Sequence record: PP766721.1
Length of the DNA: 39,500 bases
Source of the DNA: Escherichia phage Baskent_phicoli_1
Reading direction: 5' to 3' (one strand)
Shown: one piece after another, positions 1 through 39,500 of the stretch
Layout: each line of letters opens with the position of its first letter
Position numbering within the stretch: the first letter of the stretch is position 1
Position numbers and translations under genes: made by a program
The notes under the pieces: generated by a model
What the model saw: the letters and a program-made list of their open reading frames with translations, nothing else
Told to the model about the DNA's origin: nothing
Databases searched by the model: none

Positions 1-300
1 CATCGTCTGATTTACACCGAGAACTTCGGTCCAATCCCGGATGGTCTGGTAGTCAGGCATAAATGCGACAACCGTTGGTGCGTTAACCCTGAGCACTTAG
101 AGCTTGGGACTCAGCGTGATAACATACACGACTGCGTTACCCGTGGTCGTCACAATAACGCCAAGCTGTCAGACCAGCAGGTCCGTGAAATCCGAAAGGA
201 TAAGCGTAGCTCCCGTGCTGTAGCGGCTGACTATGGCATTGACCATAAGGGCGTATTGGCGGTCAGGAACCGTAAGTCTTATCAACATGTGGAGGACTGA
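1..300 (+). CDS. HNH homing endonuclease, 3' portion (ORF starts at 39165 and continues across the window wrap; stop TGA 298-300)
   Basis: Frame open from base 1; translation ...AHRLIYTENFGPIPDGLVVRHKCDNRWCVNPEHLELGTQRDNIHDC... is a classic HNH motif; bases 1-252 repeat 39249-39500. Confidence 0.85.
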   Translation, partial: HRLIYTENFGPIPDGLVVRHKCDNRWCVNPEHLELGTQRDNIHDCVTRGRHNNAKLSDQQVREIRKDKRSSRAVAADYGIDHKGVLAVRNRKSYQHVED

Positions 301-1167
301 ATGTCTGAAAAGAAAATAGCTCTGGTGCTGGACGGTGATTACCTAGTATTCTCTTCTATGGCTGCTGCCGAGGATGAGACTGACTGGGGTGATGATATTT
401 ATACTCTGATTTGTGACCACGCCAAGGCTCGTCGTATCCTTGAGAACACCATCGCTGAAATCGTTAAGAAGCGCAAGGCGTGGAAAGACGCTAAGATTGT
501 GATGTGCTTCACCGATGACGTGAACTGGCGCAAGTCAATATTACCTACCTATAAGGCTAACCGTAAAGGTTCTCGCAAGCCTGTAGGTTACAAGAAGTTC
601 GTAGCCGAAGTGATGGCTGACCCACGGTTCAACAGCTTCCTTCGTCCTACGCTTGAGGGTGATGACTGTATGGGTATCATCGGGACACGACCTCAGATTG
701 TAGGTTGTGACCATGCGGTTCTGGTATCATGCGATAAGGATTTCAAGACCATCCCGAACTGTGAGTTCTTCTGGTTAACCACTGGTGAAATCCTGAGTCA
801 TACGACTGCTGAGGCAGACTACTGGCACATGGAGCAAACCATCAAGGGTGACACTACAGATGGCTACGGCGGGATTCCGGGGATGGGTGAGGACACCACT
901 CGTGCGTTCCTTGACGAGCCGTACTACTTCGTGCAGGAGAGCCGTGAGCTTAAGACTGGCAAGAACAAAGGCCAGATTAAGACTGAGTGGAAGAAGCATC
1001 CTAAGCGTGAAGACATGACGCTGTGGGACTGCATGGTAACTCTGGCTGCTAAAGCTGGGATGACCGAGGAGGAACTTCTGGTCCAAGCTCAGGTCGCTCG
1101 TATTTGCCGAGCCTCCGACTACGACCCTAAGTCCAAGGAGGTCATCCTGTGGACACCATCCATGTAA
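301..1167 (+). CDS. gp6: 5'-3' exonuclease (T7 gene 6 homolog)
   Basis: 288 aa; CDHAKAR, FTDxVNWRK, YKANRK, KPVGY, LEGDDxMG, SCDKDFKTIPNC, QTIKGDxTDGY, SGKNKGQ, LWDC, AKAGMTEE all align with remembered T7 gp6. Confidence 0.95.
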   Translation: MSEKKIALVLDGDYLVFSSMAAAEDETDWGDDIYTLICDHAKARRILENTIAEIVKKRKAWKDAKIVMCFTDDVNWRKSILPTYKANRKGSRKPVGYKKFVAEVMADPRFNSFLRPTLEGDDCMGIIGTRPQIVGCDHAVLVSCDKDFKTIPNCEFFWLTTGEILSHTTAEADYWHMEQTIKGDTTDGYGGIPGMGEDTTRAFLDEPYYFVQESRELKTGKNKGQIKTEWKKHPKREDMTLWDCMVTLAAKAGMTEEELLVQAQVARICRASDYDPKSKEVILWTPSM

Positions 1168-6613: not shown

Positions 6614-7180
6614 ATGGCTCAATACATTCCACTGAATGCTAACGATGACTTAGATGCCATCAACGATATGTTAGCTGCTATCGGTGAACCAGCAGTCCTA
6701 CAGCTTGACGAAGGCAATGCTGACGTCTCGAATGCTCAACGTATCCTGCATCGTGTCAATCGTCAGGTCCAAGCTAAAGGCTGGAACTTTAATATCAACG
6801 AAGCTGCCGTCCTGACACCTGATGTCAAAGACAATAGGATTCGATTCTTGCCGTCATACCTTCGTGTAATGACCGCTGGTGCCACCAGCTACTACAGCAA
6901 CATGGGTGGATACCTGTACGACCTATCCACTCAGTCAACCACTTTCACCGACCCTATCACGGTAGAGCTTGTGGAGATGAAGCCATTCTCCGAGATGCCT
7001 GTGGTCTTCAGGGACTACATCGTCACTAAAGCTAGCCGTGAGTTTAACGCTAAGTTCTTCGGTAGCCCAGAGTCAGAGCTATACCTTCGTGAGCAGGAAG
7101 CAGAACTCTATCAGCAGGTTATGGAGTACGAGATGGACACTGGTCGCTACAACATGATGTCTGACATCGGGAGGGACTAA
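6614..7180 (+). CDS. gp11: Tail tubular protein A, gene 11
   Basis: 188 aa; position and size as T7 gp11 (196 aa). Confidence 0.88.
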   Translation: MAQYIPLNANDDLDAINDMLAAIGEPAVLQLDEGNADVSNAQRILHRVNRQVQAKGWNFNINEAAVLTPDVKDNRIRFLPSYLRVMTAGATSYYSNMGGYLYDLSTQSTTFTDPITVELVEMKPFSEMPVVFRDYIVTKASREFNAKFFGSPESELYLREQEAELYQQVMEYEMDTGRYNMMSDIGRD

Positions 7181-7407
7181 TGGCTAGTCACAACCTGAAG
7201 ATTCACCGCCAGCATTTTGGTCCGGTACAGCTAGGTCTAAAGACAGCAGAGCTTAGACTTAACGACCGGGACTTTAAGGTTGGTGACTGGCTTATCCTGA
7301 ATGAGTGGGACAACGGGTATACTGGACAACAGGTAGCGCGTAAGGTTGTCCACATTGCTGACGTTGGTGACATCGCTGAAGGATACGTCCTAATGAGTAT
7401 GATTTAA
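7180..7407 (+). CDS. DUF3850/ASCH-like small protein (extra gene, not in T7)
   Basis: 75 aa; HNLKIHxxHFxPVxxGxKTAELRLNDRDFKVGDWLILNEW fits the DUF3850 (ASCH/PUA-like) signature from memory; ATGA-coupled to gene 11. Confidence 0.55.
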   Translation: MASHNLKIHRQHFGPVQLGLKTAELRLNDRDFKVGDWLILNEWDNGYTGQQVARKVVHIADVGDIAEGYVLMSMI

Positions 7408-17144: not shown

Positions 17145-19301
17145 ATGTCCACGATTACACAATTCCCTTCAGGAAACACTCAGTACAGGATTGAGTTCGA
17201 CTACCTAGCCAGAACGTTTGTTGTTGTTACGCTGGTGAATAGCTCTAACCCTACCCTGAACCGTGTACTGGAAGTTGGTAGAGATTACCGATTCCTTAAT
17301 CCAACGATGATTGAGATGTTGGTTGACCAATCAGGTTTCGACATCGTTCGTATTCACCGTCAGACTGGAACTGACTTAGTGGTAGACTTCAGGAATGGCT
17401 CAGTGTTGACAGCTAGTGACCTGACCAATGCAGAGCTTCAGGCTATCCATATTGCAGAGGAAGGTCGAGACCAAACTGTTGACTTAGCGAAGGAATATGC
17501 TGATGCTGCTGGCAGCTCTGCTGGCAACGCTAAGGATAGCGAGGACGAAGCACGACGAATCGCTGAGAGTATCAAGGCAGCTGGTCGCTTTGGCTATATT
17601 ACCCGTCGCTCCTTCGAGAAAGGCTTCAACGTTACAACATGGAACGAGGCCCTGCTATGGGAAGAGGATGGTGATTATTACCGCTGGGATGGTACGCTTC
17701 CAAAGAACGTTCCTGCTGGTTCAACTCCTGAAGCGTCTGGTGGTATTGGTCTTGGTGCGTGGGTTAGCGTTGGTGACGCATCATTACGAGCCGATTTGTC
17801 GTCAAAAGATGGGATGGAATTAATAGGAGGCGACCTTAAATCATACGGAGCAGATGCTTCTGGGTCAACTCCATGTGACAGCCAACTTTCACAAATGCTA
17901 GCTGATAAAAAATTCATAGTTAACTCTGGAACTTACTTAATAACATCTACTATTGAGGTGGACATTTCCTCACTTGAATATGTAGAAGTTGGTCCTGATG
18001 TTGAATTTATCATTAAAAGCAACATTAATGGTTTCATATTTAAGAATCCGAATGCTAATTTCGACGCTAACGGTATGCGTATAACCGTAGACATCCCCGG
18101 AGGTGGATACACAAGTACAGCACTAACCTTAAGGGGGGGTAAATATTACACTGGGCCTGCTAACTTTAGCCGGTTATCCCATAAGAATAAATTTGGACCA
18201 TTTTACGTATACAACAGACAGGGTGCCGTTAAGCAAGAGTCAGCGTCTGCTCCTGTTACCGATGAGGGGTACGGCTTCTCTATAGACTGCAACTCAGCAG
18301 GTGAAGAAATTCTGATATGGAACGAAGTTGATGTCTCATCCACCGGGTTTACTGTTGCTCATGCAATTGGCGTAGGAACCAATCCACTTAACTTTATTTC
18401 ATCTCTTGACCTTAAGTTGGTATCCTGGTTCAGTACATATCACTTCAGGGACACCAGTATCCCGAAATCTGGCGGCAACGTAGCTGGGGGAATTGGGGAT
18501 GTGCGTGTGCGATTACAATCACAACCTCACGCTCAGATGGTTAAAGTTGTGCATATGGAGCACGCACCTGGCTTCATGAGTGGTTGCCGATTTGACCTGT
18601 CAATCTGGGACCCTAACGCCTATGGATATACCGCGAACGTGGTCGATGCATCCGTGACGAACGAATATACAAATACTATGGAGCGGAAAGCATATCCGTT
18701 AACTCGAGTGTTGAACATGGTAGATGGTAGTATATTCCCGGTCGTGAATTACACCAGTAGCATCCAGCAGTCTGATATACTTTCCAGTAGTGACCCTGAA
18801 CTGGCTAAGTACCTGTACCTATCAACTGTAACGCCAGAAATGACAGTGTTACAAGCATGTAACGCTATTAAAACATGGTGTAACGAAAATAACATCCGTA
18901 ATAATTTTGAATTCAAAGTGTTTTTAGGAGACTCTACCGCCGACATACGTAACGTTTTTCTCCCGTGGATAACAGCTATAGGTGACTCCTCAGGATACTT
19001 ACATCTATATGCTACTTTTTACAATGGAATTATAAATACAGTGCGTGTCGAGTACGAGGTTAATCCGATAACCAGCGGCGGAAAGACAGAAAAACACGAA
19101 ATATTATGGACAAACACAACAGGTCTTGTGTTGCATCGCCTGATTGAGTACTCATTCGGTACCACGGCTGAGATAAAAAGCAAGGTAGCCATACAAGTGA
19201 AAGGCTTCACTACTTTTGACTCAACTTTCAACATCCCTGTTTGGTATAATGGCAATAGTTCATGGCTTAAAGCAGACGGTTCTGTGGCATATTCTGCTTA
19301 A
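17145..19301 (+). CDS. gp17: Tail fiber / tailspike: T7 gp17-like N-terminal adaptor fused to a large C-terminal domain (putative polysaccharide depolymerase)
   Basis: 718 aa; N-terminal about 150 aa (FDYLARTFVVVTL, LVVDFRNGSVLTASDL, QAIHIAEEGRD) match T7 gp17; linker WxSVGDASLRADLSSKDG is typical of tailspike beta-helix starts; C-terminal region is visibly AT-rich. Confidence 0.88.
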   Translation: MSTITQFPSGNTQYRIEFDYLARTFVVVTLVNSSNPTLNRVLEVGRDYRFLNPTMIEMLVDQSGFDIVRIHRQTGTDLVVDFRNGSVLTASDLTNAELQAIHIAEEGRDQTVDLAKEYADAAGSSAGNAKDSEDEARRIAESIKAAGRFGYITRRSFEKGFNVTTWNEALLWEEDGDYYRWDGTLPKNVPAGSTPEASGGIGLGAWVSVGDASLRADLSSKDGMELIGGDLKSYGADASGSTPCDSQLSQMLADKKFIVNSGTYLITSTIEVDISSLEYVEVGPDVEFIIKSNINGFIFKNPNANFDANGMRITVDIPGGGYTSTALTLRGGKYYTGPANFSRLSHKNKFGPFYVYNRQGAVKQESASAPVTDEGYGFSIDCNSAGEEILIWNEVDVSSTGFTVAHAIGVGTNPLNFISSLDLKLVSWFSTYHFRDTSIPKSGGNVAGGIGDVRVRLQSQPHAQMVKVVHMEHAPGFMSGCRFDLSIWDPNAYGYTANVVDASVTNEYTNTMERKAYPLTRVLNMVDGSIFPVVNYTSSIQQSDILSSSDPELAKYLYLSTVTPEMTVLQACNAIKTWCNENNIRNNFEFKVFLGDSTADIRNVFLPWITAIGDSSGYLHLYATFYNGIINTVRVEYEVNPITSGGKTEKHEILWTNTTGLVLHRLIEYSFGTTAEIKSKVAIQVKGFTTFDSTFNIPVWYNGNSSWLKADGSVAYSA

Positions 19302-19403: not shown

Positions 19404-19598
19404 ATGATTGAGTTAGACTTCAAGAATGAGGTCCTTAAAGCCTCTCCTATCGTCGGGACCGCTGCGGCTGATGGTGCCAGTCGGTTCTTCTTCGGACTTA
19501 CACTGAACGAATGGTTCTACGTTGCAGCTATCGCGTACACCGTTGTCCAGATTGGTGTGCTAGTCTACAAAACGATTAAAGGAGGTGGTAAAACATGA
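19404..19598 (+). CDS. gp17.5: Holin (T7 gp17.5 homolog)
   Basis: 64 aa; LDFxNExxKAxPIVGT...FFGLxLNEWFYVAAIAYTVVQIG nearly identical to T7 gp17.5. Confidence 0.92.
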   Translation: MIELDFKNEVLKASPIVGTAAADGASRFFFGLTLNEWFYVAAIAYTVVQIGVLVYKTIKGGGKT

Positions 19599-19858
19599 CG
19601 CAGATGGACTTAGAGAAGTTCCTCTTAATGCTAGATACTGAACGTGCTCGACTCATGCTGAAAGACCTGCGGGATGACTCTAAGCGTTCACCTCAGCTCT
19701 ACAACGCCATTGAGAAGCTGCTTGCTCGTCACAACTTTGTGTTAAGCAAGGTGTCTGTGGACGAGAAGACGCTGGCTGATATGGAGGCCCTGAACGCAGA
19801 GTACGATAAGGTGCTTTCAGCGACTGAGGATAATGACACCGGGTATGGTGTTCAATAA
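19595..19858 (+). CDS. gp18: Terminase small subunit (DNA maturase A), gene 18
   Basis: 87 aa, ATGA-coupled to holin; position and size as T7 gp18 (89 aa). Confidence 0.85.
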   Translation: MTQMDLEKFLLMLDTERARLMLKDLRDDSKRSPQLYNAIEKLLARHNFVLSKVSVDEKTLADMEALNAEYDKVLSATEDNDTGYGVQ

Positions 19859-20569: not shown

Positions 20570-22333
20570 TTGAGTAAAGACTTAGTGGCGCGTCAGGCGC
20601 TAATGACTGCCCGTATGAAGGCAGACTTCGTGTTCTTCCTGTTCGTCCTGTGGAAAGCTCTGTCGCTCCCAGTCCCGACTCGCTGTCAGATTGACATGGC
20701 GAAGAAACTATCGGCTGGGGACAACAGGCGCTTCATCCTGCAGGCGTTCCGTGGTATCGGGAAGTCCTTCATTACGTGTGCCTTCGTTGTCTGGAAGCTA
20801 TGGAACAACCCAGACTTGAAGTTCATGATTGTGTCGGCCTCAAAGGAACGAGCCGATGCTAACTCCATCTTCATCAAGCGAATCATCGACCTCATGCCTC
20901 AGCTTCAGGAACTCAAACCTAAGCAGGGACAGCGAGATGCGGTTATCAGCTTCGACGTTGGACCAGCCAAGCCCGACCACTCACCTTCGGTTAAGTCCGT
21001 TGGTATCACTGGTCAGTTGACTGGTAGTCGTGCTGACATCCTGATTGCCGATGACGTGGAGGTCCCTAACAACTCAGCGACTCAGGCTGCACGAGACCGT
21101 CTGTCAGAGCTTGTGAAAGAGTTCGACGCTATCCTGAAGCCGGGAGGTACAATCATCTATCTGGGTACTCCTCAGAACGAGATGACCTTGTATCGTGAGC
21201 TGGAAGGCCGTGGATACACCACTACTATCTGGCCTGCTCGTTATCCACGCGATAAGAAGGACTGGCAGTCTTACGGCGACCGTCTGGCACCGATGCTTCA
21301 GGCAGAGCTGGAAGAGGACCCTGAGTCCTTCTACTGGCGTCCGACTGATGAAGTACGCTTCGATGATACGGACCTGAAGGAACGTGAGCTGTCCTATGGT
21401 AAAGCTGGCTTCGCTCTACAGTTCATGCTTAACCCGAACCTTAGTGATGCCGAGAAGTACCCTCTGAAGCTCCGTGACCTTATCGTAGCAGACTTGGACC
21501 CAGCGTCCAGCCCAATGGTCTACCAATGGCTGCCAAACCCTCAGAACAAGCGTGAGGACGTCCCTAACGTTGGACTCATGGGTGACTCATACCACACGTA
21601 TCAGACTGTAGGTTCTGCCTTCAGTTCGTACACCCAGAAGATTCTGGTCATTGACCCTAGTGGTCGTGGTAAGGATGAAACTGGCTATGCGGTACTGTAC
21701 CAGCTCAACGGCTACATCTTCGCTATGGAAGTTGGTGGTATGCGTGGTGGTTATGAAGACTCTACGCTGGAAGCTCTGGCTAAGATTGGTCGTAAGTGGA
21801 AGGTCAACGAATACGTCATTGAGGGTAACTTCGGTGATGGTATGTACCTTGAGCTATTCAAGCCCGTAGCAGCCCGTATCCACCCTGCTGCTGTAACTGA
21901 AGTGAAGAGTAAGGGTCAGAAAGAACTCCGCATCTGTGACGTTCTGGAGCCTATCATGGGGTCTCACCGACTTATCGTTAACGCTGCTGCTATCGTCCAA
22001 GACTACCAGTCGGCCTCTGATAAGGATGGTGTTCGTAACCCTATCTACTCTCTCTTCTACCAGATGACACGTATCTCTCGTGAACGTGGAGCCTTGGCAC
22101 ACGATGACAGACTTGATGCGCTGGCTATCGGTGTACAGTTCTTCGTTGAGTCTATGGCTAAGGATGCCAACAAAGGCGAACGTGAAGTCACTGAGGAGTG
22201 GCTGGAGGAACAGATGGAGAACCCACGGAAAGGCTTCGAGTCCATCCACACTGAGTTCTGGGACAATGGGGTCCGGGTAACTCACGATACGGACGACGAG
22301 CTGGGGCTAGGGTCCTACGTTACGTTTCACTAG
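20570..22333 (+). CDS. gp19: Terminase large subunit (DNA maturase B), gene 19; apparent TTG start
   Basis: 587 aa; [23 protein letters not shown], [76 protein letters not shown], [25 protein letters not shown] essentially as in T7 gp19; AAGGAGG SD 7 nt before TTG. Confidence 0.97.
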
Positions 22334-23941: not shown

Positions 23942-24277
23942 ATGGAACGTAACGCTAACGCATACTATGAGCTGCTGGCTGCAACCGTTGAAGCATTTAA
24001 CGAGAGCATTCAGTACGACAAAATAGCTGAAGGTGATGACTACAGCGATGCGCTGCATGAAGTCGTAGACAGTCATGTTCCGCACTATTACCACGAGATT
24101 TTCACGGTGATGGCTGCTGATGGTATTGACCATGAGTTCGAAGACTCTGGGCTGATGCCTGAGACCAAGGACGTAACGCGTATACTACAAGCTCGCATTT
24201 ATGAAGCACTGTATAACGATGTATCTAATAGCTCGGATGTAGTCTGGTTCGAGTCTACTGAGGAGGAATGCGAGTGA
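23942..24277 (+). CDS. ocr: Ocr (gene 0.3) DNA-mimic anti-restriction protein
   Basis: 111 aa, very acidic; VPHYYxxIFxVMAxxGIDxEFEDSGLMPxTKDVxRILQARIYE nearly identical to T7 Ocr. Confidence 0.92.
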   Translation: MERNANAYYELLAATVEAFNESIQYDKIAEGDDYSDALHEVVDSHVPHYYHEIFTVMAADGIDHEFEDSGLMPETKDVTRILQARIYEALYNDVSNSSDVVWFESTEEECE

Positions 24278-24774: not shown

Positions 24775-24972
24775 ATGAGTCTTGCACTATTGATAGCCAT
24801 AGGATATGGACTTATCGCCTACGTGCTGATGAGAGACATCAACAAAGCGCGTAAAGTCTACAAATTCAACTATGTACGGCTGGGCCGCTGGACTGTACGT
24901 CAACCTAACGGACGATTCATGCGAAACTTAGCGAACGTCTGGGACATAGCAACTCTGGGAGGTAAACTGTGA
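24775..24972 (+). CDS. Small early protein with N-terminal TM helix (65 aa)
   Basis: MSLALLIAIGYGLIAYVLM then basic tail; coupled upstream and downstream. Confidence 0.5.
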   Translation: MSLALLIAIGYGLIAYVLMRDINKARKVYKFNYVRLGRWTVRQPNGRFMRNLANVWDIATLGGKL

Positions 24973-25397
24973 TGGAAAAGCTATGCAGAACATGCCACGC
25001 TTTAAAGCCGCTGGAAGAGTACCACAAGCATAAAACCTCCAAAGACGGCAGGGAGAGTCAGTGTAAGACTTGCCGCAATAAGCAGATTATGAAGACCAGG
25101 AAACTACGATACAGTAAGTCTGCTAGCTTCAGGGAGTCTAAACGGAACGAAACCCTGCGTAAACTGTACGGGATTACAGTAGATGACTATGAGGAGATGT
25201 TTAAGCGGCAGGGCGGGGTGTGCGCTATCTGTCATCAGCCGGAAACTGGTAACATACGAATGGCGGTAGACCACTGTCATGCAAGTGGTAAAGTTCGCGG
25301 GCTACTGTGTAAAAACTGCAACACTGCGCTAGGAAACCTAAAAGACTCGATTGAGATTCTCACAAACGCAATCACATATCTTCAGGAGAACAATTAA
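24969..25397 (+). CDS. Endonuclease VII-family (HNH-fold) nuclease, probable homing endonuclease
   Basis: 142 aa; GGVCAICHQPETGNIRMAVDHCHASGKVRGLLCKNCNTALG aligns with T4 endonuclease VII GKCLICQREL...HLDHDHELNGPKAGKVRGLLCNLCNAAEG; extra N-terminal CxxC...CxxC. Confidence 0.8.
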   Translation: MMEKLCRTCHALKPLEEYHKHKTSKDGRESQCKTCRNKQIMKTRKLRYSKSASFRESKRNETLRKLYGITVDDYEEMFKRQGGVCAICHQPETGNIRMAVDHCHASGKVRGLLCKNCNTALGNLKDSIEILTNAITYLQENN

Positions 25398-25799: not shown

Positions 25800-28481
25800 A
25801 TGAGCGTCATCTCTATTGACAAACACGACTTCTCTGATGTGTCAAACGCCATTGAGCCGTTTAACCTGCTGGCCGACCACTACGGGCAAGACCTTGCAGT
25901 CAAACAGCTTCAGCTTGAGCATGAGGCATACACTGAAGGCGAGCGACGTTTCATCAAAAACCTTGAGCGACAGACTGAGCGCGGGGAACTGGCAGACAAT
26001 CAGGTCGCCAAGCCTTTGATGCAGACTCTGGTTCCTAAGATTGCGCAAGCCGTCAGGGAGTGGCACGAAGGTCCAGACGGGAAGCTGTCAACCTCTCGTC
26101 CGAGCGTAGCGTTCACCATGTTGAGCACTGAAGAGAAGGCCGTCAAGGACCGCTCTATGCGTATCTCCTGTGAGTCTGCTGCGGTCATCATACTGAAGGT
26201 CATACTCTCCAAGCTGGTCAAGCCTGAAGGTATACCGATTACACCGATGGCCTCAGCGATAGGTCGCACACTTGAGGACGAAATCCGCTTCGGTCGCATC
26301 CGTGACAAGGAGAAGGAGCATTTCAAGAAGGCGATAGCTGAGAACTTGAACAAGCGAGCTGGGGTATCCTACAAGAAAGCCTACATGCAAGCTGTCGAGG
26401 CATCCATGCTGGAGCAAGGCCAACTGGAAGATGCATGGGGAACTTGGAGTCCGACCGAGGCTGTCCACGTTGGAATCAAGATGCTTGAGATCGTCATCCA
26501 GTCAACACAGCTGGTCGAGCTTAAGCGTTATGGTGCTGGCAATGCAGCAGCTGACGTCGAGATGGTCCACCTGACAGACTTCTGGGTCAAGAAGATGGCA
26601 CAACGAGGATTCAGCCTTGCGGGTATCGCTCCAGTCTACCAGCCTTGCGTAGTTCCACCTAAGCCGTGGACTGGTGTAGTGGGAGGTGGATACTGGGCCA
26701 AAGGTCGCAGACCGTTGCCATTGATTCGCTTAGGGTCTAAGTCTGCGGTGGCACGTTATGAAGACGTATACATGCCTGAAGTCTATGACGCTGTGAATAT
26801 CATCCAGAATACACCTTGGAAAGTGAACAAGAAGGTTCTGGACGTGGTGAACATGGTCGAGAAGTTGAACAACACGCCTATTGATGACATCCCTCAGATG
26901 GAGCCACTGAAGCCTGAAGACTATGCGGGCGAGACTGAAGAGGAACTCAAGGCATGGAAGAAAGCTGCTGCTGGTATCTACCGCCGAGAGAAGGCCCGGC
27001 AGTCACGCAGATTGTCACTAAGCTTTATCGTCAACCAAGCGAACAAATTCTCTCAGTTCAAGGCCATCTGGTTCCCGTACAACATGGACTGGCGCGGACG
27101 CGTCTACGCTGTTCCGATGTTCAACCCTCAGGGTAACGACATGCAAAAAGGGCTCCTTACTCTGGCAGTCGGCAAGCCCATTGGTGCCGATGGTTTTAAA
27201 TGGCTGAAGGTCCACGGTGCAAACTGCGCGGGTATTGATAAAGTCACCTTCGAGGAGCGCATCAAGTGGGTGGAAGACAACCACGACAACATCATGGCTG
27301 CTGCTAAGGCACCGATGGACAGCATTGAGTGGTGGGGAAAGTTAGACTCTCCATTCTGCTTCCTAGCGTTCTGCTTCGAGTATGCTGGCGTAATGCACCA
27401 CGGATTGTCTTACTCCTGCTCGCTGCCGATAGCGTTCGATGGGTCATGCTCTGGGATTCAACACTTTAGCGCGATGCTTCGTGATCACATCGGTGGACAT
27501 GCAGTAAACCTGACGCCTTCAGGTAAGGTCCAAGACATCTACCGCATCGTGTCTGACCGCATTGAGGAAGAGCTTAAAGTCCTGCTGGTTAAGGGCACGG
27601 ACAACGAGGTGGTCACTCACGAGGACAAGAAAACTGGTGAGATTACCGAACGTCTCAAGCTGGGGACACGAGAGCTGGCCCGTCAGTGGCTGACTTACGG
27701 TATGTCACGCAAGGTCACTAAGCGCTCAGTCATGACTCTGGCCTACGGGTCGAAAGAGTATGGCTTCGCAGACCAAGTTTACGAGGACATCGTGATGCCA
27801 GCGATTGACTCAGGGTCTGGCGCTATGTTCACCGAACCAAGCCAAGCGTCCCGCTTCATGGCTAAGATGATTTGGGAAGCTGTGAGCGTGACCGTAGTTG
27901 CTGCTGTTGACGCGATGAAGTGGCTTCAGGGTGCTGCCAAGCTGCTGGCTGCTGAAGTGAAGGACAAGAAGACTGGAGAAATCCTGAAGCCTTGCCTTCC
28001 GGTACACTGGGTCACACCTGATGGTTTCCCTGTCTGGCAGGAATACCGCAAGAAGGATACCACTCGTCTGAACCTGATGTTCTTAGGGTCATTCAACCTT
28101 CAACCTACGGTCAACAAGGGCACGAAGAAAGAGCTGGACAAGCACAAGCAGGAGTCAGGCATTAGCCCGAACTTCGTCCACTCACAAGATGGGAGCCACC
28201 TACGCAAGACTGTAGTCCACACTCACCGCAAGTATGGTGTTATGTCATTCGCAGTGATTCACGATAGCTTCGGGACCATCCCGGCTGACGCTGAGTATCT
28301 GTTCCGTGGTGTCCGTGAGACGATGGTCGAGACCTACCGCGACAACGACGTGCTGCTTGACTTCTACGAGCAGTTCGAATACCAGCTTCATGAGAGCCAG
28401 CGCGACAAGTTGCCCGAGCTTCCGAAGAAAGGTAAACTGAACATCGAAGACATTCTGTCTTCAGACTTTGCATTCGCTTAA
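25800..28481 (+). CDS. gp1: Single-subunit DNA-dependent RNA polymerase, gene 1
   Basis: 893 aa; collinear with T7 RNAP throughout (NxAKxDFSD, PFNxLADHYG, FPYNMDWRGRVYAV, MFNPQGNDMxKGLLTLA, DGSCSGIQHFSAMLRD, VTKRSVMTLAYGSKE, VHWVTPDGFPVWQEY, HKQESGIxPNFVHSQDGSHLRKTV, IHDSFGTIPADA, FAFA C-terminus). Confidence 0.98.
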   Translation: MSVISIDKHDFSDVSNAIEPFNLLADHYGQDLAVKQLQLEHEAYTEGERRFIKNLERQTERGELADNQVAKPLMQTLVPKIAQAVREWHEGPDGKLSTSRPSVAFTMLSTEEKAVKDRSMRISCESAAVIILKVILSKLVKPEGIPITPMASAIGRTLEDEIRFGRIRDKEKEHFKKAIAENLNKRAGVSYKKAYMQAVEASMLEQGQLEDAWGTWSPTEAVHVGIKMLEIVIQSTQLVELKRYGAGNAAADVEMVHLTDFWVKKMAQRGFSLAGIAPVYQPCVVPPKPWTGVVGGGYWAKGRRPLPLIRLGSKSAVARYEDVYMPEVYDAVNIIQNTPWKVNKKVLDVVNMVEKLNNTPIDDIPQMEPLKPEDYAGETEEELKAWKKAAAGIYRREKARQSRRLSLSFIVNQANKFSQFKAIWFPYNMDWRGRVYAVPMFNPQGNDMQKGLLTLAVGKPIGADGFKWLKVHGANCAGIDKVTFEERIKWVEDNHDNIMAAAKAPMDSIEWWGKLDSPFCFLAFCFEYAGVMHHGLSYSCSLPIAFDGSCSGIQHFSAMLRDHIGGHAVNLTPSGKVQDIYRIVSDRIEEELKVLLVKGTDNEVVTHEDKKTGEITERLKLGTRELARQWLTYGMSRKVTKRSVMTLAYGSKEYGFADQVYEDIVMPAIDSGSGAMFTEPSQASRFMAKMIWEAVSVTVVAAVDAMKWLQGAAKLLAAEVKDKKTGEILKPCLPVHWVTPDGFPVWQEYRKKDTTRLNLMFLGSFNLQPTVNKGTKKELDKHKQESGISPNFVHSQDGSHLRKTVVHTHRKYGVMSFAVIHDSFGTIPADAEYLFRGVRETMVETYRDNDVLLDFYEQFEYQLHESQRDKLPELPKKGKLNIEDILSSDFAFA

Positions 28482-29549: not shown

Positions 29550-29801
29550 ATGAGTAAACGTTGGTTATTCGACGCATCCCCGAGCCAGTGGTCAGTGTTA
29601 GGCCGGACTCACCGCGAGATGAGTGAGGCAGGACTTGATGTCCTAATGGATGACTCGCCGTGCTCCGGAAAAACTCTGGTCAGAATAATTGAAGCAGACG
29701 GTGGGAGGTTTCTGGTCTCCAGAGAATTTACCGAAGATGAAATCTTTAGCTGTGAGCAATGGTGCTTACAACAATTGAACGCTTATAGGAGCTGGAAATA
29801 A
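29550..29801 (+). CDS. gp1.2: gp1.2-like protein (dGTPase inhibitor position)
   Basis: 83 aa, same size and position as T7 gp1.2, ends ...WK; similarity is weak by eye. Confidence 0.5.
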   Translation: MSKRWLFDASPSQWSVLGRTHREMSEAGLDVLMDDSPCSGKTLVRIIEADGGRFLVSREFTEDEIFSCEQWCLQQLNAYRSWK

Positions 29802-31727: not shown

Positions 31728-31921
31728 GTGGTGCCGGGGGATGTATGAGAAGACTCTCAACCCAGACTACATTACGTTATACAACCAATGGAAGGAGCGC
31801 GGTTTATGAACCAAGACCAGATTAACTTTGTGTGTCAGCTTATTAAGGAGTTCGTGGACTTCACTGATTTATCCGAAGATGAACTTGTTAAGCTGGAAGA
31901 GATTCTAGACAAGGAGATTTT

Positions 31922-32080
31922 ATGAGTGACGCCGAGAAGAAATACATCGTTGAGCTTGAGGGCCGCACTCAGTACTTCGAGGTTCCTGTGTACGCAAAGT
32001 CTCTTGAAGAGGCTACCCTGAAGTCCCAAGAGTATGAGGACGCTGGGTTTGTGGTCGGACGGATTCGTCCTGAGACCTAA
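31922..32080 (+). CDS. gp2: Host RNA polymerase inhibitor gp2 homolog
   Basis: 52 aa ORF below track cutoff; [13 protein letters not shown]...[10 protein letters not shown] matches T7 Gp2 FEVPIYAETLDEA...AGFEVTRVRP; AAGGAG SD. Confidence 0.75.
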
Positions 32081-36452: not shown

Positions 36453-36497
36453 GTCTAGACTCAAGGTCATTCACATCGAGTGGCCTTTATGATTAGA
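36452..36497 (+). promoter_or_regulatory. Conserved structured element (putative RNase III site, R4.7-like) upstream of gene 5
   Basis: TAGACTCAAGGTCAT-N10-GTGGCCTTTATGATTA. Confidence 0.55.
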
Positions 36498-36515
36498 CTA
36501 AACGGAGGATTAACC

Positions 36516-38687
36516 ATGTTTGACCTTAAGAGTATCTGGGGTTCTGACATCGAGACCAACGGTCTCCTTGATACAGTCTCCCAGTTTCACTGTGGGGTCC
36601 TGATTAACGCCGAGTCGAATGAGACCCTTAAGTATGGGGTGGCTCCGATGGTCGGTATCGTCGGTGGCTTCAAAGAGTATGTGCGGAAGGTGGAAGAGAT
36701 TGCCGCATCACCTGATGGTATGCTGGTATTCCACAATGGTATCAACTATGACGTCCCTGCTATTGACAAGCTGAAACGTCTGTACTTTGGGAAACGATTT
36801 AACTTCCCGAAACACAAGATGATTGATACCTTGGTTCTGGGACGCTTGATGTATCCCAACATTAAGTTCTCAGACATGGGCGCGGTGAAAGCTGGTCGTC
36901 TGCCACCTAAGATGATGGGACGCCAGTCTCTTGAGGCTTGGGGCTATCGTCTCGGTGAAATGAAGGGTGAGTACAAACACGATTACGTTGCCAAGTGCAA
37001 GGCTGAAGGTATCGAATATAAGTCTGGGGACGAATGGTTGTTCCCGTCTCAGGAGATGCTGGACTATAACGTTCAGGACGTTGTGGTCACATTGGCATTG
37101 TTCAAGAAGTTCCTGACTGACAAGTATTACTTCCAGTCTGAACAGTTCGCCTTCGAACAGATTTATGCGTTGCGTCTGGAACATGATGCTGCGTGGACCT
37201 GTGCGAAGATGGAGCGTAACGGCTATCCGATGAACACAGAGATGGTCGAAGGCTTATATCGTGAACTCACTGTCAAACGTGCGGAGTTGCTGGACAAGCT
37301 GCGCTCGACTTTCGGTAGCTGGTATGCACCAAAGGGTGGCAAGGAGTTCTTCAGGCATCCACGTACAGGTAAGGACCTTCCGAAGTATCCGAGAGTCGTG
37401 TATCCTAAGGTCGGTGGCATCTTTAAGAAGCCGAAGAACAAAGCTCAACGCTTAGGTCTTGAACCTTGTGAACGCGATACGCGAGACACGATGGAAGGAG
37501 CACCATTCACGCCAATCACTTACGTTGAGTTTAATCCGGGAAGCGGAGACCACTTAGCGAAAGTCTTGATGGAGCGTGGCTGGGAGCCTGTGGACTTCAC
37601 TGACACTGGGAAACCTGTAGTCGATGACGAGACGTTGGAACACGTTAAGTTACCAGACGCAGAGGCTCAGGCTTGCGTAGAGCTGGTCCGTGAGTATCTG
37701 GTAGTCCAGAAGCGCATCGGGCAGGCTGCTGAAGGTAAGAACGCTTGGTTGAAACTTGTAGGTCCAGACGGACGTATGCACGGTTCAATCAACCCTTGTG
37801 GAGCAGTAACCGGACGTGCGACCCATAGTTCACCAAACATGGCTCAGGTCCCGGCTAACGGTGCTCCGTATGGTGAGACTTGCCGTGGTGCTTTCGGTGC
37901 AGCGTGGAACAAGAAGGACGGTAAGCCAGACCCTTGGATTCAAGTAGGTGTGGACGCCTCAGGTCTTGAGCTTCGTTGTCTGGGGAACCGAGCGGCTCCG
38001 TTTGATGGTGGAGATTATGCGAAGACTGTGGTCGAAGGTGACATCCACTGGGCCAACGCAGTCAACGCTGGGTTAGCACCTAACGTCCCACGCGACAAGT
38101 CGAGCCACGACCACGATGCTTTCCGTAACAACGCTAAGACGTTCATCTATGCGTTCCTGTATGGTGCAGGGGCAGCTAAGATTGGACTGATAGTCGGCGG
38201 TGGTAAGAAGGAAGGCGCGGCCCTGATGAAGAAATTCATTGAGGGTACACCAGCCATCAAGGATCTGCGAGAGGCTGTGCAGAACACGCTCATCTCAGAG
38301 TCGAAGTGGGTAGATGGTGAGAACATCGTGAAGTGGAAACGTCGCTGGCTGAAAGGTCTGGATGGTCGCCGCATTCACATCCGGTCCCCACACTCAGCAC
38401 TTAACGCCCTACTTCAGGGTGATGGTGCGGTAGTCTGTAAGCACTGGATTGTCGAGACCGAGCGTATGCTCGAAGAGGCCGGGTATGTCCACGGCTGGGA
38501 AGGAGACTTCGCGTACATGGCTTGGGTTCACGATGAGCTACAGATTGCGTGTCGTACTCAGGAGATTGCCGAAGAAGTCGTCAAGATTGCTCAACTTGCT
38601 ATGCGTAAGGTGGGTGAGTTCTATAACTTTAAATGTGTCCTTGATACCGAAGGTAAGATTGGACCAACGTGGAAGGAGTGTCACTAA
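36516..38687 (+). CDS. gp5: DNA polymerase, gene 5 (start moved to ATG 36516 with GGAGG SD; ORF-track start 36480 lies in the upstream element)
   Basis: DIExNxLLxxVxxFHCGV, HNGxxYDVPA, IDTLVLxRL, LEAWGYRLGEMKGEY, DYNVQDVVVT, thioredoxin-binding-loop-like PKYPRxxxPKVGGIFKKPKNKAQR, AVTGRATH, DASGLELRCL, NAKTFIYxFLYGAG, AYMAWVHDE match T7 gp5. Confidence 0.96.
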   Translation: MFDLKSIWGSDIETNGLLDTVSQFHCGVLINAESNETLKYGVAPMVGIVGGFKEYVRKVEEIAASPDGMLVFHNGINYDVPAIDKLKRLYFGKRFNFPKHKMIDTLVLGRLMYPNIKFSDMGAVKAGRLPPKMMGRQSLEAWGYRLGEMKGEYKHDYVAKCKAEGIEYKSGDEWLFPSQEMLDYNVQDVVVTLALFKKFLTDKYYFQSEQFAFEQIYALRLEHDAAWTCAKMERNGYPMNTEMVEGLYRELTVKRAELLDKLRSTFGSWYAPKGGKEFFRHPRTGKDLPKYPRVVYPKVGGIFKKPKNKAQRLGLEPCERDTRDTMEGAPFTPITYVEFNPGSGDHLAKVLMERGWEPVDFTDTGKPVVDDETLEHVKLPDAEAQACVELVREYLVVQKRIGQAAEGKNAWLKLVGPDGRMHGSINPCGAVTGRATHSSPNMAQVPANGAPYGETCRGAFGAAWNKKDGKPDPWIQVGVDASGLELRCLGNRAAPFDGGDYAKTVVEGDIHWANAVNAGLAPNVPRDKSSHDHDAFRNNAKTFIYAFLYGAGAAKIGLIVGGGKKEGAALMKKFIEGTPAIKDLREAVQNTLISESKWVDGENIVKWKRRWLKGLDGRRIHIRSPHSALNALLQGDGAVVCKHWIVETERMLEEAGYVHGWEGDFAYMAWVHDELQIACRTQEIAEEVVKIAQLAMRKVGEFYNFKCVLDTEGKIGPTWKECH

Positions 38688-38959
38688 TGGCTATTACTAA
38701 ACGCCTTACCTGTAAGTTTGACATGAAGATTGTAGTTACGTCTGAGGACGTGGAGTCATACGTTCTTAATATGGTGGAGCTTACCAAGGGTTATGTCTCA
38801 GGTGAGAAACTGGACGGCATGGCCCGGAAGCTGGTAGAGACTGCTGTAGAGCAGGGTGTCGAAGCTGCCATTGAGCTGCACCTGAAGTCTGTTCTAGCAT
38901 CCAAACTGAAAGACGAGCTGCAAGGGGTCTACAATATCAGCACGAGGTTCAAGCAATGA
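38687..38959 (+). CDS. gp5.5: gp5.5 homolog (H-NS-binding protein in T7)
   Basis: ATG overlapping gene 5 stop (TAATG); MAxTKxxxxxFDxxxxxxSxDV N-terminus resembles T7 gp5.5. Confidence 0.7.
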   Translation: MAITKRLTCKFDMKIVVTSEDVESYVLNMVELTKGYVSGEKLDGMARKLVETAVEQGVEAAIELHLKSVLASKLKDELQGVYNISTRFKQ

Positions 38960-39165
38960 GTGAATACTTACGGGTCCTAGCGGCCCTTAAGTCCTGCCCG
39001 AAGACCTTCCAGTCCAACTATGTGCGCAACAACGCTGCACTTGTGGCTGAGGCTGCGAGTCGTGGACATCTGAGCTGCCTGTCTACGGATGGGCGTAACA
39101 ATGGTGCGTGGGAGATTACCGCCGAAGGCGTTAAGTTCCTGAACAAACATGGAGGCTGTCTATAA
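38956..39165 (+). CDS. gp5.7: gp5.7 homolog (host RNAP/sigma-S associated inhibitor in T7)
   Basis: 69 aa; MSEYLRVLAALKSCPKTFQSNYVRNNAALVAEAASRGHLSCL...GAWEITAEG...GGC nearly identical to T7 gp5.7. Confidence 0.88.
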   Translation: MSEYLRVLAALKSCPKTFQSNYVRNNAALVAEAASRGHLSCLSTDGRNNGAWEITAEGVKFLNKHGGCL

Positions 39166-39500
39166 TGACCGAGTGTACCCGTTGGACTGGCTATTTCCTA
39201 TCTAATGGGTATGGTCAGATAAAGAAATCTGGCGTCAAGTGGCTGGCTCATCGTCTGATTTACACCGAGAACTTCGGTCCAATCCCGGATGGTCTGGTAG
39301 TCAGGCATAAATGCGACAACCGTTGGTGCGTTAACCCTGAGCACTTAGAGCTTGGGACTCAGCGTGATAACATAAACGACTGCGTTACCCGTGGTCGTCA
39401 CAATAACGCCAAGCTGTCAGACCAGCAGGTCCGTGAAATCCGAAAGGATAAGCGTAGCTCCCGTGCTGTAGCGGCTGACTATGGCATTGACCATAAGGGC
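39165..39500 (+). CDS. HNH homing endonuclease, 5' portion (continues at window start; full gene 384 nt / 127 aa)
   Basis: ATG overlaps gp5.7 stop (TAATG); MTECTRWTGYFLSNGYGQIKKSGVKWLAHRLIYTENFGPIPDGLVVRHKCDNRWCVNPEHLELGT... Confidence 0.85.
   Translation, partial: MTECTRWTGYFLSNGYGQIKKSGVKWLAHRLIYTENFGPIPDGLVVRHKCDNRWCVNPEHLELGTQRDNINDCVTRGRHNNAKLSDQQVREIRKDKRSSRAVAADYGIDHKG

Follow-up and report, generated by a model that had tools for sequence, protein, structure and literature searches.

The gene between gp5.7 and gene 6 of Escherichia phage Baskent_phicoli_1 is best read, with a probability of roughly 0.7, as a free-standing homing-type HNH endonuclease gene (HNH_3, T7 gp7.7-like) that would have entered a cassette hot spot of Kayfunavirus in a lineage with an empty slot, without any loss of gp5.9. 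The analysis covered the whole stretch of 39,500 nucleotides, termed the window. As the same gene is already present at the same junction in public phage genomes, it represents an ordinary, already deposited and annotated gene within a hypervariable slot. From genome comparison, it appears to show the population pattern expected of a free-standing homing endonuclease, comprising exact insertion, presence/absence polymorphism and carriers that are not nearest neighbours by their flanking genes.

Architecture of the HNH gene and of the window

The window is a circularly permuted, circularly closed assembly of a genome whose true length is 39,248 bp, bases 1–252 being a repeat of bases 39249–39500 with a single mismatch (C127 versus A39375). 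Megablast placement assigned the genome to Kayfunavirus, the K1F-like genus of the Studiervirinae, where the E. coli phages TH20, TH16 and ST31 were ~94–95% identical over 86–89% of a 25-kb query. All large open reading frames are located on the plus strand and follow the T7 order, but permuted: the window opens inside the HNH gene and continues with gene 6, the structural genes and the terminase (20570–22333), followed by the early region including Ocr and the RNA polymerase (25800–28481), and then by the primase/helicase and the DNA polymerase (36480–38687). The 3' end comprises the DNA polymerase, gp5.5, gp5.7 and the HNH reading frame, in this order.

The gp5.5-like gene (38687–38959, plus strand; 90 residues) starts with an ATG overlapping the DNA polymerase stop codon as TAATG and matches PHROG 1452 ('Gp5.5-like host HNS inhibition', E 2.3e-19), whereas the gp5.7 gene (38956–39165, plus strand; 69 residues; PHROG 1334, E 1.5e-38) forms the upstream border of the slot. 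The preliminary description had considered both proteins well conserved, which is the case for gp5.7 with 77% identity to its T7 counterpart, but not for the gp5.5-like protein with 25% identity (E 9e-5). The HNH start codon (ATG, 39165–39167) overlaps the gp5.7 stop codon (TAA, 39163–39165) in a TAATG arrangement, confirming the described coupling of a 127-residue HNH endonuclease to gp5.7. The interval 39165–39500 (plus strand) that had been given for this gene has the correct start but comprises only the first 112 codons, as the remainder is read through the terminal repeat to a TGA at 298–300, with the last 99 codons and the stop located at 1–300 (plus strand). The joined reading frame thus attains its full 127 residues only because the window is circularly permuted with a 252-bp terminal overlap. 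The single mismatch within this overlap (127 versus 39375, C versus A) switches residue 71 between His and Asn, the latter being found in the relatives KE14, pO91 and Monomax, and stems either from variation in the population or from a mistake in assembly.

Gene 6 (301–1167, plus strand) encodes a 5'-3' exonuclease of 288 residues (Pfam 5_3_exonuc_N, E 9.5e-9; PHROG 107, E 5e-80) with 52% identity to T7 gp6 and forms the downstream border, the HNH gene adjoining gp5.7 and gene 6 with zero intergenic bases. A putative GGAGG Shine–Dalgarno element at 39151–39155 (plus strand), read from the sequence and the junction alignment, is located within the 3' end of gp5.7 with the HNH ATG 9 nt downstream, and in the junction alignment the same GGAGG stands 6 nt upstream of the gene 6 ATG in the empty-slot relatives. 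A second GGAGG at 291–295 (plus strand), encoded within the final HNH codons (V-E-D) 5 nt upstream of the ATG at 301, presumably acts as the Shine–Dalgarno element for gene 6. The other cassettes also carry at their 3' ends a purine-rich GGAGG-type stretch directly upstream of the gene 6 start.

The HNH protein matches Pfam HNH_3 (PF13392) over residues 27–69 with 61.8 bits (gathering cut-off 24.8; E 4.7e-17), and its match to PHROG 59 'HNH endonuclease' (E 2.7e-32) was the best of eleven matching PHROG HNH/endonuclease families, both assignments being far above chance. In a weak match (E 0.024) to the homing endonuclease I-HmuI (PDB ID: 1u3e), residues H48, H60 and N69 correspond to H75, N87 and N96 of that enzyme. 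Four of the five orthologs share the motif H-K-C-D-N-R-W-C-V-N-P-E-H-L unchanged; KE14 has an N at the position of E59. The aligned I-HmuI residues are those that we take to be the catalytic histidine and the metal-binding asparagine of a beta-beta-alpha-metal motif. The protein is basic (pI 9.4), residues about 80–127 likely form a DNA-binding tail, and a pN/pS of 0.04–0.11 indicates purifying selection on the gene. Together, the aligned active-site residues and the purifying selection mark it, at the level of sequence, as an intact nuclease gene. A relocated T7 gene 5.3 protein was rejected as its identity, as blastp against T7 gp5.3 yielded no match.

Several further features of the window were observed. 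A second free-standing nuclease gene (24969–25397, plus strand; 142 residues) immediately precedes that for the RNA polymerase; its match is to Pfam Endonuclease_7 (E 1.8e-29), whose fold also occurs in certain homing endonucleases. The DNA polymerase gene (36480–38687) is uninterrupted, whereas in K1F the annotation of gene 5 (locus L006, 12921–15690) joins two segments that are separated by an HNH endonuclease reading frame; TH20 and pO91 carry a different HNH gene in the slot between DNA polymerase and gp5.5, where the window has none. The tail fibre/tailspike gene (17145–19301) encodes 718 residues, much shorter than the 1064-residue gene 17 product of K1F ('tail protein'), and is the stretch of lowest GC content (0.45 versus ~0.50 elsewhere), its low GC content and shortness suggesting a swapped host-range module. 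Between the tail tubular genes 11 and 12, where K1F has no gene, the window carries a gene for an ASCH/DUF3850 protein (7180–7407, plus strand; 75 residues; E 1.9e-19).

gp5.9 and the variable slot between gp5.7 and gene 6

The junction occupied by the HNH gene had been described as the place where T7 carries gene 5.9, and genes of Pfam family PF25708 are indeed found exactly there in T7, Berlin and GW1. The gp5.9 RecBCD inhibitor family was defined as PF25708 together with PHROGs 9014, 4790 and 6234. As had been described, no gp5.9-like reading frame was detected, neither in the slot nor elsewhere in the genome searched in six frames, where a homolog had been named as the finding that would refute the observation. 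T7 gp5.9 (NC_001604) gave no match by phmmer against the six-frame stop-to-stop segments of the circularised genome (best E 1.3) and no homolog by tblastn against the genome (best E 0.36), an HMM built from eight diverse members of the gp5.9 family yielded nothing over six frames (best E 0.56), PF25708 was not found among 34 small plus-strand proteins (curated Pfam, E ≤ 0.1), and the VDNW motif was absent from the three plus-strand reading frames. The other RecBCD inhibitors lambda Gam and P22 Abc2 were rejected as candidates, with no Pfam match among the 34 small proteins.

Small acidic proteins, proposed as a place to look for gp5.9, were likewise reviewed and rejected as analogs. The acidic reading frames have other identities, namely Ocr (23942–24277; PF08684, E 1.4e-31), the gp2 RNA polymerase inhibitor (31922–32080), the small terminase (19595–19858) and a dGTPase inhibitor (29550–29801), and the one orphan among them is not callable as gp5.9-like. 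This very acidic orphan of 39 residues (31806–31925, plus strand) lies between genes 1.8 and 2, with ATGA coupling at either end and an AAGGAG 8 nt upstream. It matched no Pfam or PHROG family, has no counterpart in K1F and occurs in just five further Kayfunaviruses (ASO2B, EcoDS1, IME177, pO2, R1). It is a candidate small inhibitor.

PF25708 is broader than T7 gp5.9 alone, also matching the 59-residue slot protein of Yersinia phage Berlin (E 2.6e-17), the 66-residue slot protein of the Kayfunavirus Cronobacter phage GW1 (E 4.4e-15) and two further slot proteins (IMG/VR loci L063 and L036), yet it is missing from most K1F-like phages. T7-type gp5.9 is limited to 187 GenBank records, mainly T7, T3 and close relatives, nearly all with at least 80% identity, and none of these records is named Kayfunavirus. 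Within Kayfunavirus, a gp5.9-family gene was found in GW1 only, in a version unique in GenBank. The absence of gp5.9 is thus the rule in the genus and does not result from the HNH gene. gp5.9 acts as a DNA-mimic inhibitor of RecBCD (PMC9836394) and sets off abortive infection by retron Ec48, a T7 escape mutant carrying L23P in gene 5.9 (bioRxiv 10.1101/2020.06.21.156273); triggering of this retron could plausibly explain why many T7-like phages lack the protein, whose gene is labelled 'not essential' in the T7 RefSeq record. The findings are compatible with the phage coping with RecBCD without gp5.9.

For the slot survey, 80 IMG/VR loci were retrieved via gp5.7, and slot families were assigned by inspection together with Pfam and PHROG; single-linkage clustering of the slot reading frames was dropped, as shared carboxy-terminal tails joined unrelated families. 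Across the 80 loci, gp5.7 and gene 6 are separated by −4 to 586 bp. In these loci, the slot contains either nothing or one of at least six unrelated gene families: a 60-residue protein (PHROG 12303), proteins of 68–94 (PHROG 2251), 93–117 (PHROG 18166) and 129–150 residues (PHROG 4382), gp5.9-family proteins (PF25708) and the HNH gene. Most slots hold a single gene, and the HNH-bearing genomes examined had no second cassette. The slot of the T7 RecBCD inhibitor is thus a hypervariable cassette site across the sampled T7-like phages bearing gp5.7.

The junctions are defined to the nucleotide. In K1F and ASO2B the slot is empty, with a 4-nt ATGA shared by the stop of gp5.7 and the start of gene 6, gp5.7 ending in ...GGAGGCTGTCTATGA with the gene 6 ATG within those letters, and the junction alignment revealed that every cassette starts directly after ...GGAGGCTGTCTAT (...CTGTCTAT) and ends before the GA(A/G)AAGAA of gene 6. 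The slot is also empty in ST31 and TH20, the nearest whole-genome relatives inspected, and in L011, the IMG/VR locus whose gp5.7 comes closest (99%). Of the 23 loci with a gp5.7 of 91% or higher identity to that of the window, seven are empty, a single one (GW1, locus L024) carries a gp5.9-family gene and none the HNH gene. Presence or absence of the HNH gene is hence polymorphic at one exact site, which is empty in K1F, ASO2B, ST31, TH20 and L011 and occupied in pO91, Monomax, KE14, FE44 and PC192.

The carboxy-terminal part of the 149-residue PHROG 4382 proteins (locus L004, 1074–1523; ...SHLNSEDNDMAHEF...) resembles the amino-terminal part of the gp5.9-family proteins of GW1 and of locus L036 (PHROG 6163). 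This shared module suggests that slot cassettes may recombine with each other.

Origin of the HNH gene and alternative explanations

Carriers of the HNH gene at the gp5.7/gene 6 junction were found in Kayfunavirus, with amino-acid identities of 97.6% (pO91), 98.4% (Monomax) and 96.1% (KE05, KE14 and KE18), and in Berlinvirus, with 77% (FE44) and 75.6% (PC192 and PC127). The gene order gp5.7, HNH, exonuclease was observed in every annotated carrier record checked. Although 1144 phage records match the HNH family by tblastn, only about nine do so with at least 60% identity, all of them at this junction and five with at least 95%. Distant paralogs (44–50%) occupy other T7-like junctions, located after gene 7.3, before gene 16 or beside the ligase.

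The carriers are not nearest neighbours in the flanks formed by DNA polymerase or gene 6: the 3' end of the DNA polymerase gene of the window is 80–83% identical to those of pO91 and Monomax, versus 96% to that of the HNH-less PRF-SP2. Among carriers, the nucleotide identity of the HNH gene (92–93.5%) equals that of its flanks; for the Berlinvirus copy (71%), gene and flanks have likewise diverged to the same degree. As the divergence of the gene thus corresponds to that of the flanks in both genera, there is no sign of recent horizontal transfer. From these comparisons, long vertical residence with repeated loss would fit the pattern of the HNH gene as well as transfer does.

The reading that we favour can be formulated as a sequence of steps. 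The HNH gene is inserted exactly at the 4-nt ATGA overlap seen in the empty-slot relatives, where it presumably took over the GGAGG (39151–39155) serving gene 6 in empty-slot phages, its own last codons bringing a new GGAGG (291–295) for gene 6. Due to this replacement, expression of gene 6 should be preserved. In mixed infections, as expected from its family, the enzyme would nick or cut HNH-less alleles near the junction, and recombinational repair off the HNH-bearing genome would copy the gene in, overwriting the cassette of the recipient. The recipient lineage probably had an empty slot, in which case no gp5.9 would have been lost via the HNH gene, and the phage would, like most of its genus, simply be without a gp5.9-type RecBCD inhibitor. 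An empty recipient is favoured for the Kayfunavirus of the window by parsimony from a few relatives.

A broader conjecture, to which we assign a low probability, regards the junction as an exchange point for host-takeover and counter-defence cassettes, which may include the gp5.9-family RecBCD inhibitors and PHROG families 2251, 18166, 4382 and 12303, with the HNH gene as a site-specific homing element overwriting the cassettes of rivals and the acidic reading frame as a candidate inhibitor. Since gp5.9 triggers abortive infection of the retron Ec48 type, HNH-driven loss of gp5.9 alleles could be favoured in some host populations. Independently of this, the 39-residue acidic protein (31806–31925) could be a DNA-mimic-like inhibitor that has gone unrecognised, in phages lacking gp5.9.

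The preliminary description had offered displacement of gp5.9 by the nuclease as one possibility, together with alignment to relatives lacking the HNH gene as a check. In its explicit form, this possibility has the HNH cassette taking the place of an ancestral gp5.9-family gene, with the RecBCD inhibitor lost through homing-linked conversion across the homologies of gp5.7 and gene 6. By its mechanism, homing into an allele that bears gp5.9 would remove this gene, and the slot is the genuine gp5.9 slot, with PF25708 genes in T7, Berlin, GW1 and the loci L063 and L036. Furthermore, as Berlin carries a gp5.9-like gene where FE44 and PC192 carry the HNH gene, the two are alternative alleles within Berlinvirus. 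Most slots hold one gene, and the HNH-bearing genomes examined lack a second cassette. However, the nearest relatives TH20, ST31, ASO2B, K1F and L011 are empty at the junction, the HNH-less K1F and ASO2B displaying the bare ATGA overlap and no gp5.9. The GW1 gene, unique in GenBank, is the sole gp5.9-family gene among the 23 close loci, and no gp5.9 remnant is found beside the HNH gene, which has no intergenic bases to hold one. For the phage of the window, displacement therefore appears improbable.

We also give little credence to a domesticated rather than selfish HNH gene that aids the phage, for instance through breakdown of the DNA of host or competitors or by keeping out co-infecting relatives. 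The strong purifying selection (pN/pS 0.04–0.11) would also fit such a domesticated function, as would the divergence equal to that of the flanks in two genera and the tight translational coupling between two conserved genes, but the distribution is very patchy (about nine of the 1144 records at 60% identity or more) and the closest relatives manage without the gene. To our knowledge, T7-like replication and packaging require no HNH partner, which likewise counts against domestication.

That the HNH protein substitutes for gp5.9 in neutralising RecBCD is highly improbable, since position in the slot of T7 gp5.9 is what the two have in common, whereas a basic protein (pI 9.4) of nuclease fold is the opposite of a small acidic DNA mimic (PMC9836394), empty-slot relatives have neither protein, and HNH paralogs occupy many unrelated slots.

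HNH genes dispersed across T7-like genomes are commonplace, and the one described here is of little consequence in itself. The picture of this slot is relevant for predicting which T7-like phages trigger defences that guard RecBCD, such as retron Ec48, as well as for the choice of phages for therapy or engineering.

Comparison with known systems

T7 gp5.9 and its PF25708 relatives share with the HNH gene of the window only the position between gene 5.7 and gene 6, T7 gp5.9 being a small, acidic protein of 52 residues without sequence similarity to the basic 127-residue nuclease. The closest counterparts are the HNH genes of Escherichia phage pO91 (WMM35639.1), Dickeya phage Monomax and the Salmonella phages vB_STmST19_KE05, KE14 and KE18 (XCH39853.1), all likewise Kayfunaviruses, with identical junction and 127-residue length; these genes are 92–93.5% identical to that of the window at the nucleotide level and their products differ from it by few amino-acid changes. 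Between DNA polymerase and gp5.5, pO91 has a second HNH gene and KE14 a 53-residue reading frame, whereas the window has neither.

Gp28 of Erwinia phage FE44 (YP_008766742.1), annotated as '7.7; putative homing endonuclease', exhibits the identical junction and architecture in a different genus, Berlinvirus, whose type phage Berlin has a gp5.9-like gene at this junction. The gp7.7-type HNH proteins, such as gp7.7 of Escherichia phage 13a and 7.7C of Citrobacter phage CR44b ('predicted homing endonuclease'), are HNH_3 proteins with 44–48% identity to the protein of the window, of similar size and with a helix-turn-helix-like carboxy-terminal tail, but are encoded at different junctions, either downstream of gene 7.3 or upstream of gene 16. 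For I-HmuI (PDB ID: 1u3e) of Bacillus phage SPO1, the HNH core aligns with weak similarity (E 0.024); I-HmuI is an intron-encoded nicking enzyme, whereas the HNH gene of the window is free-standing.
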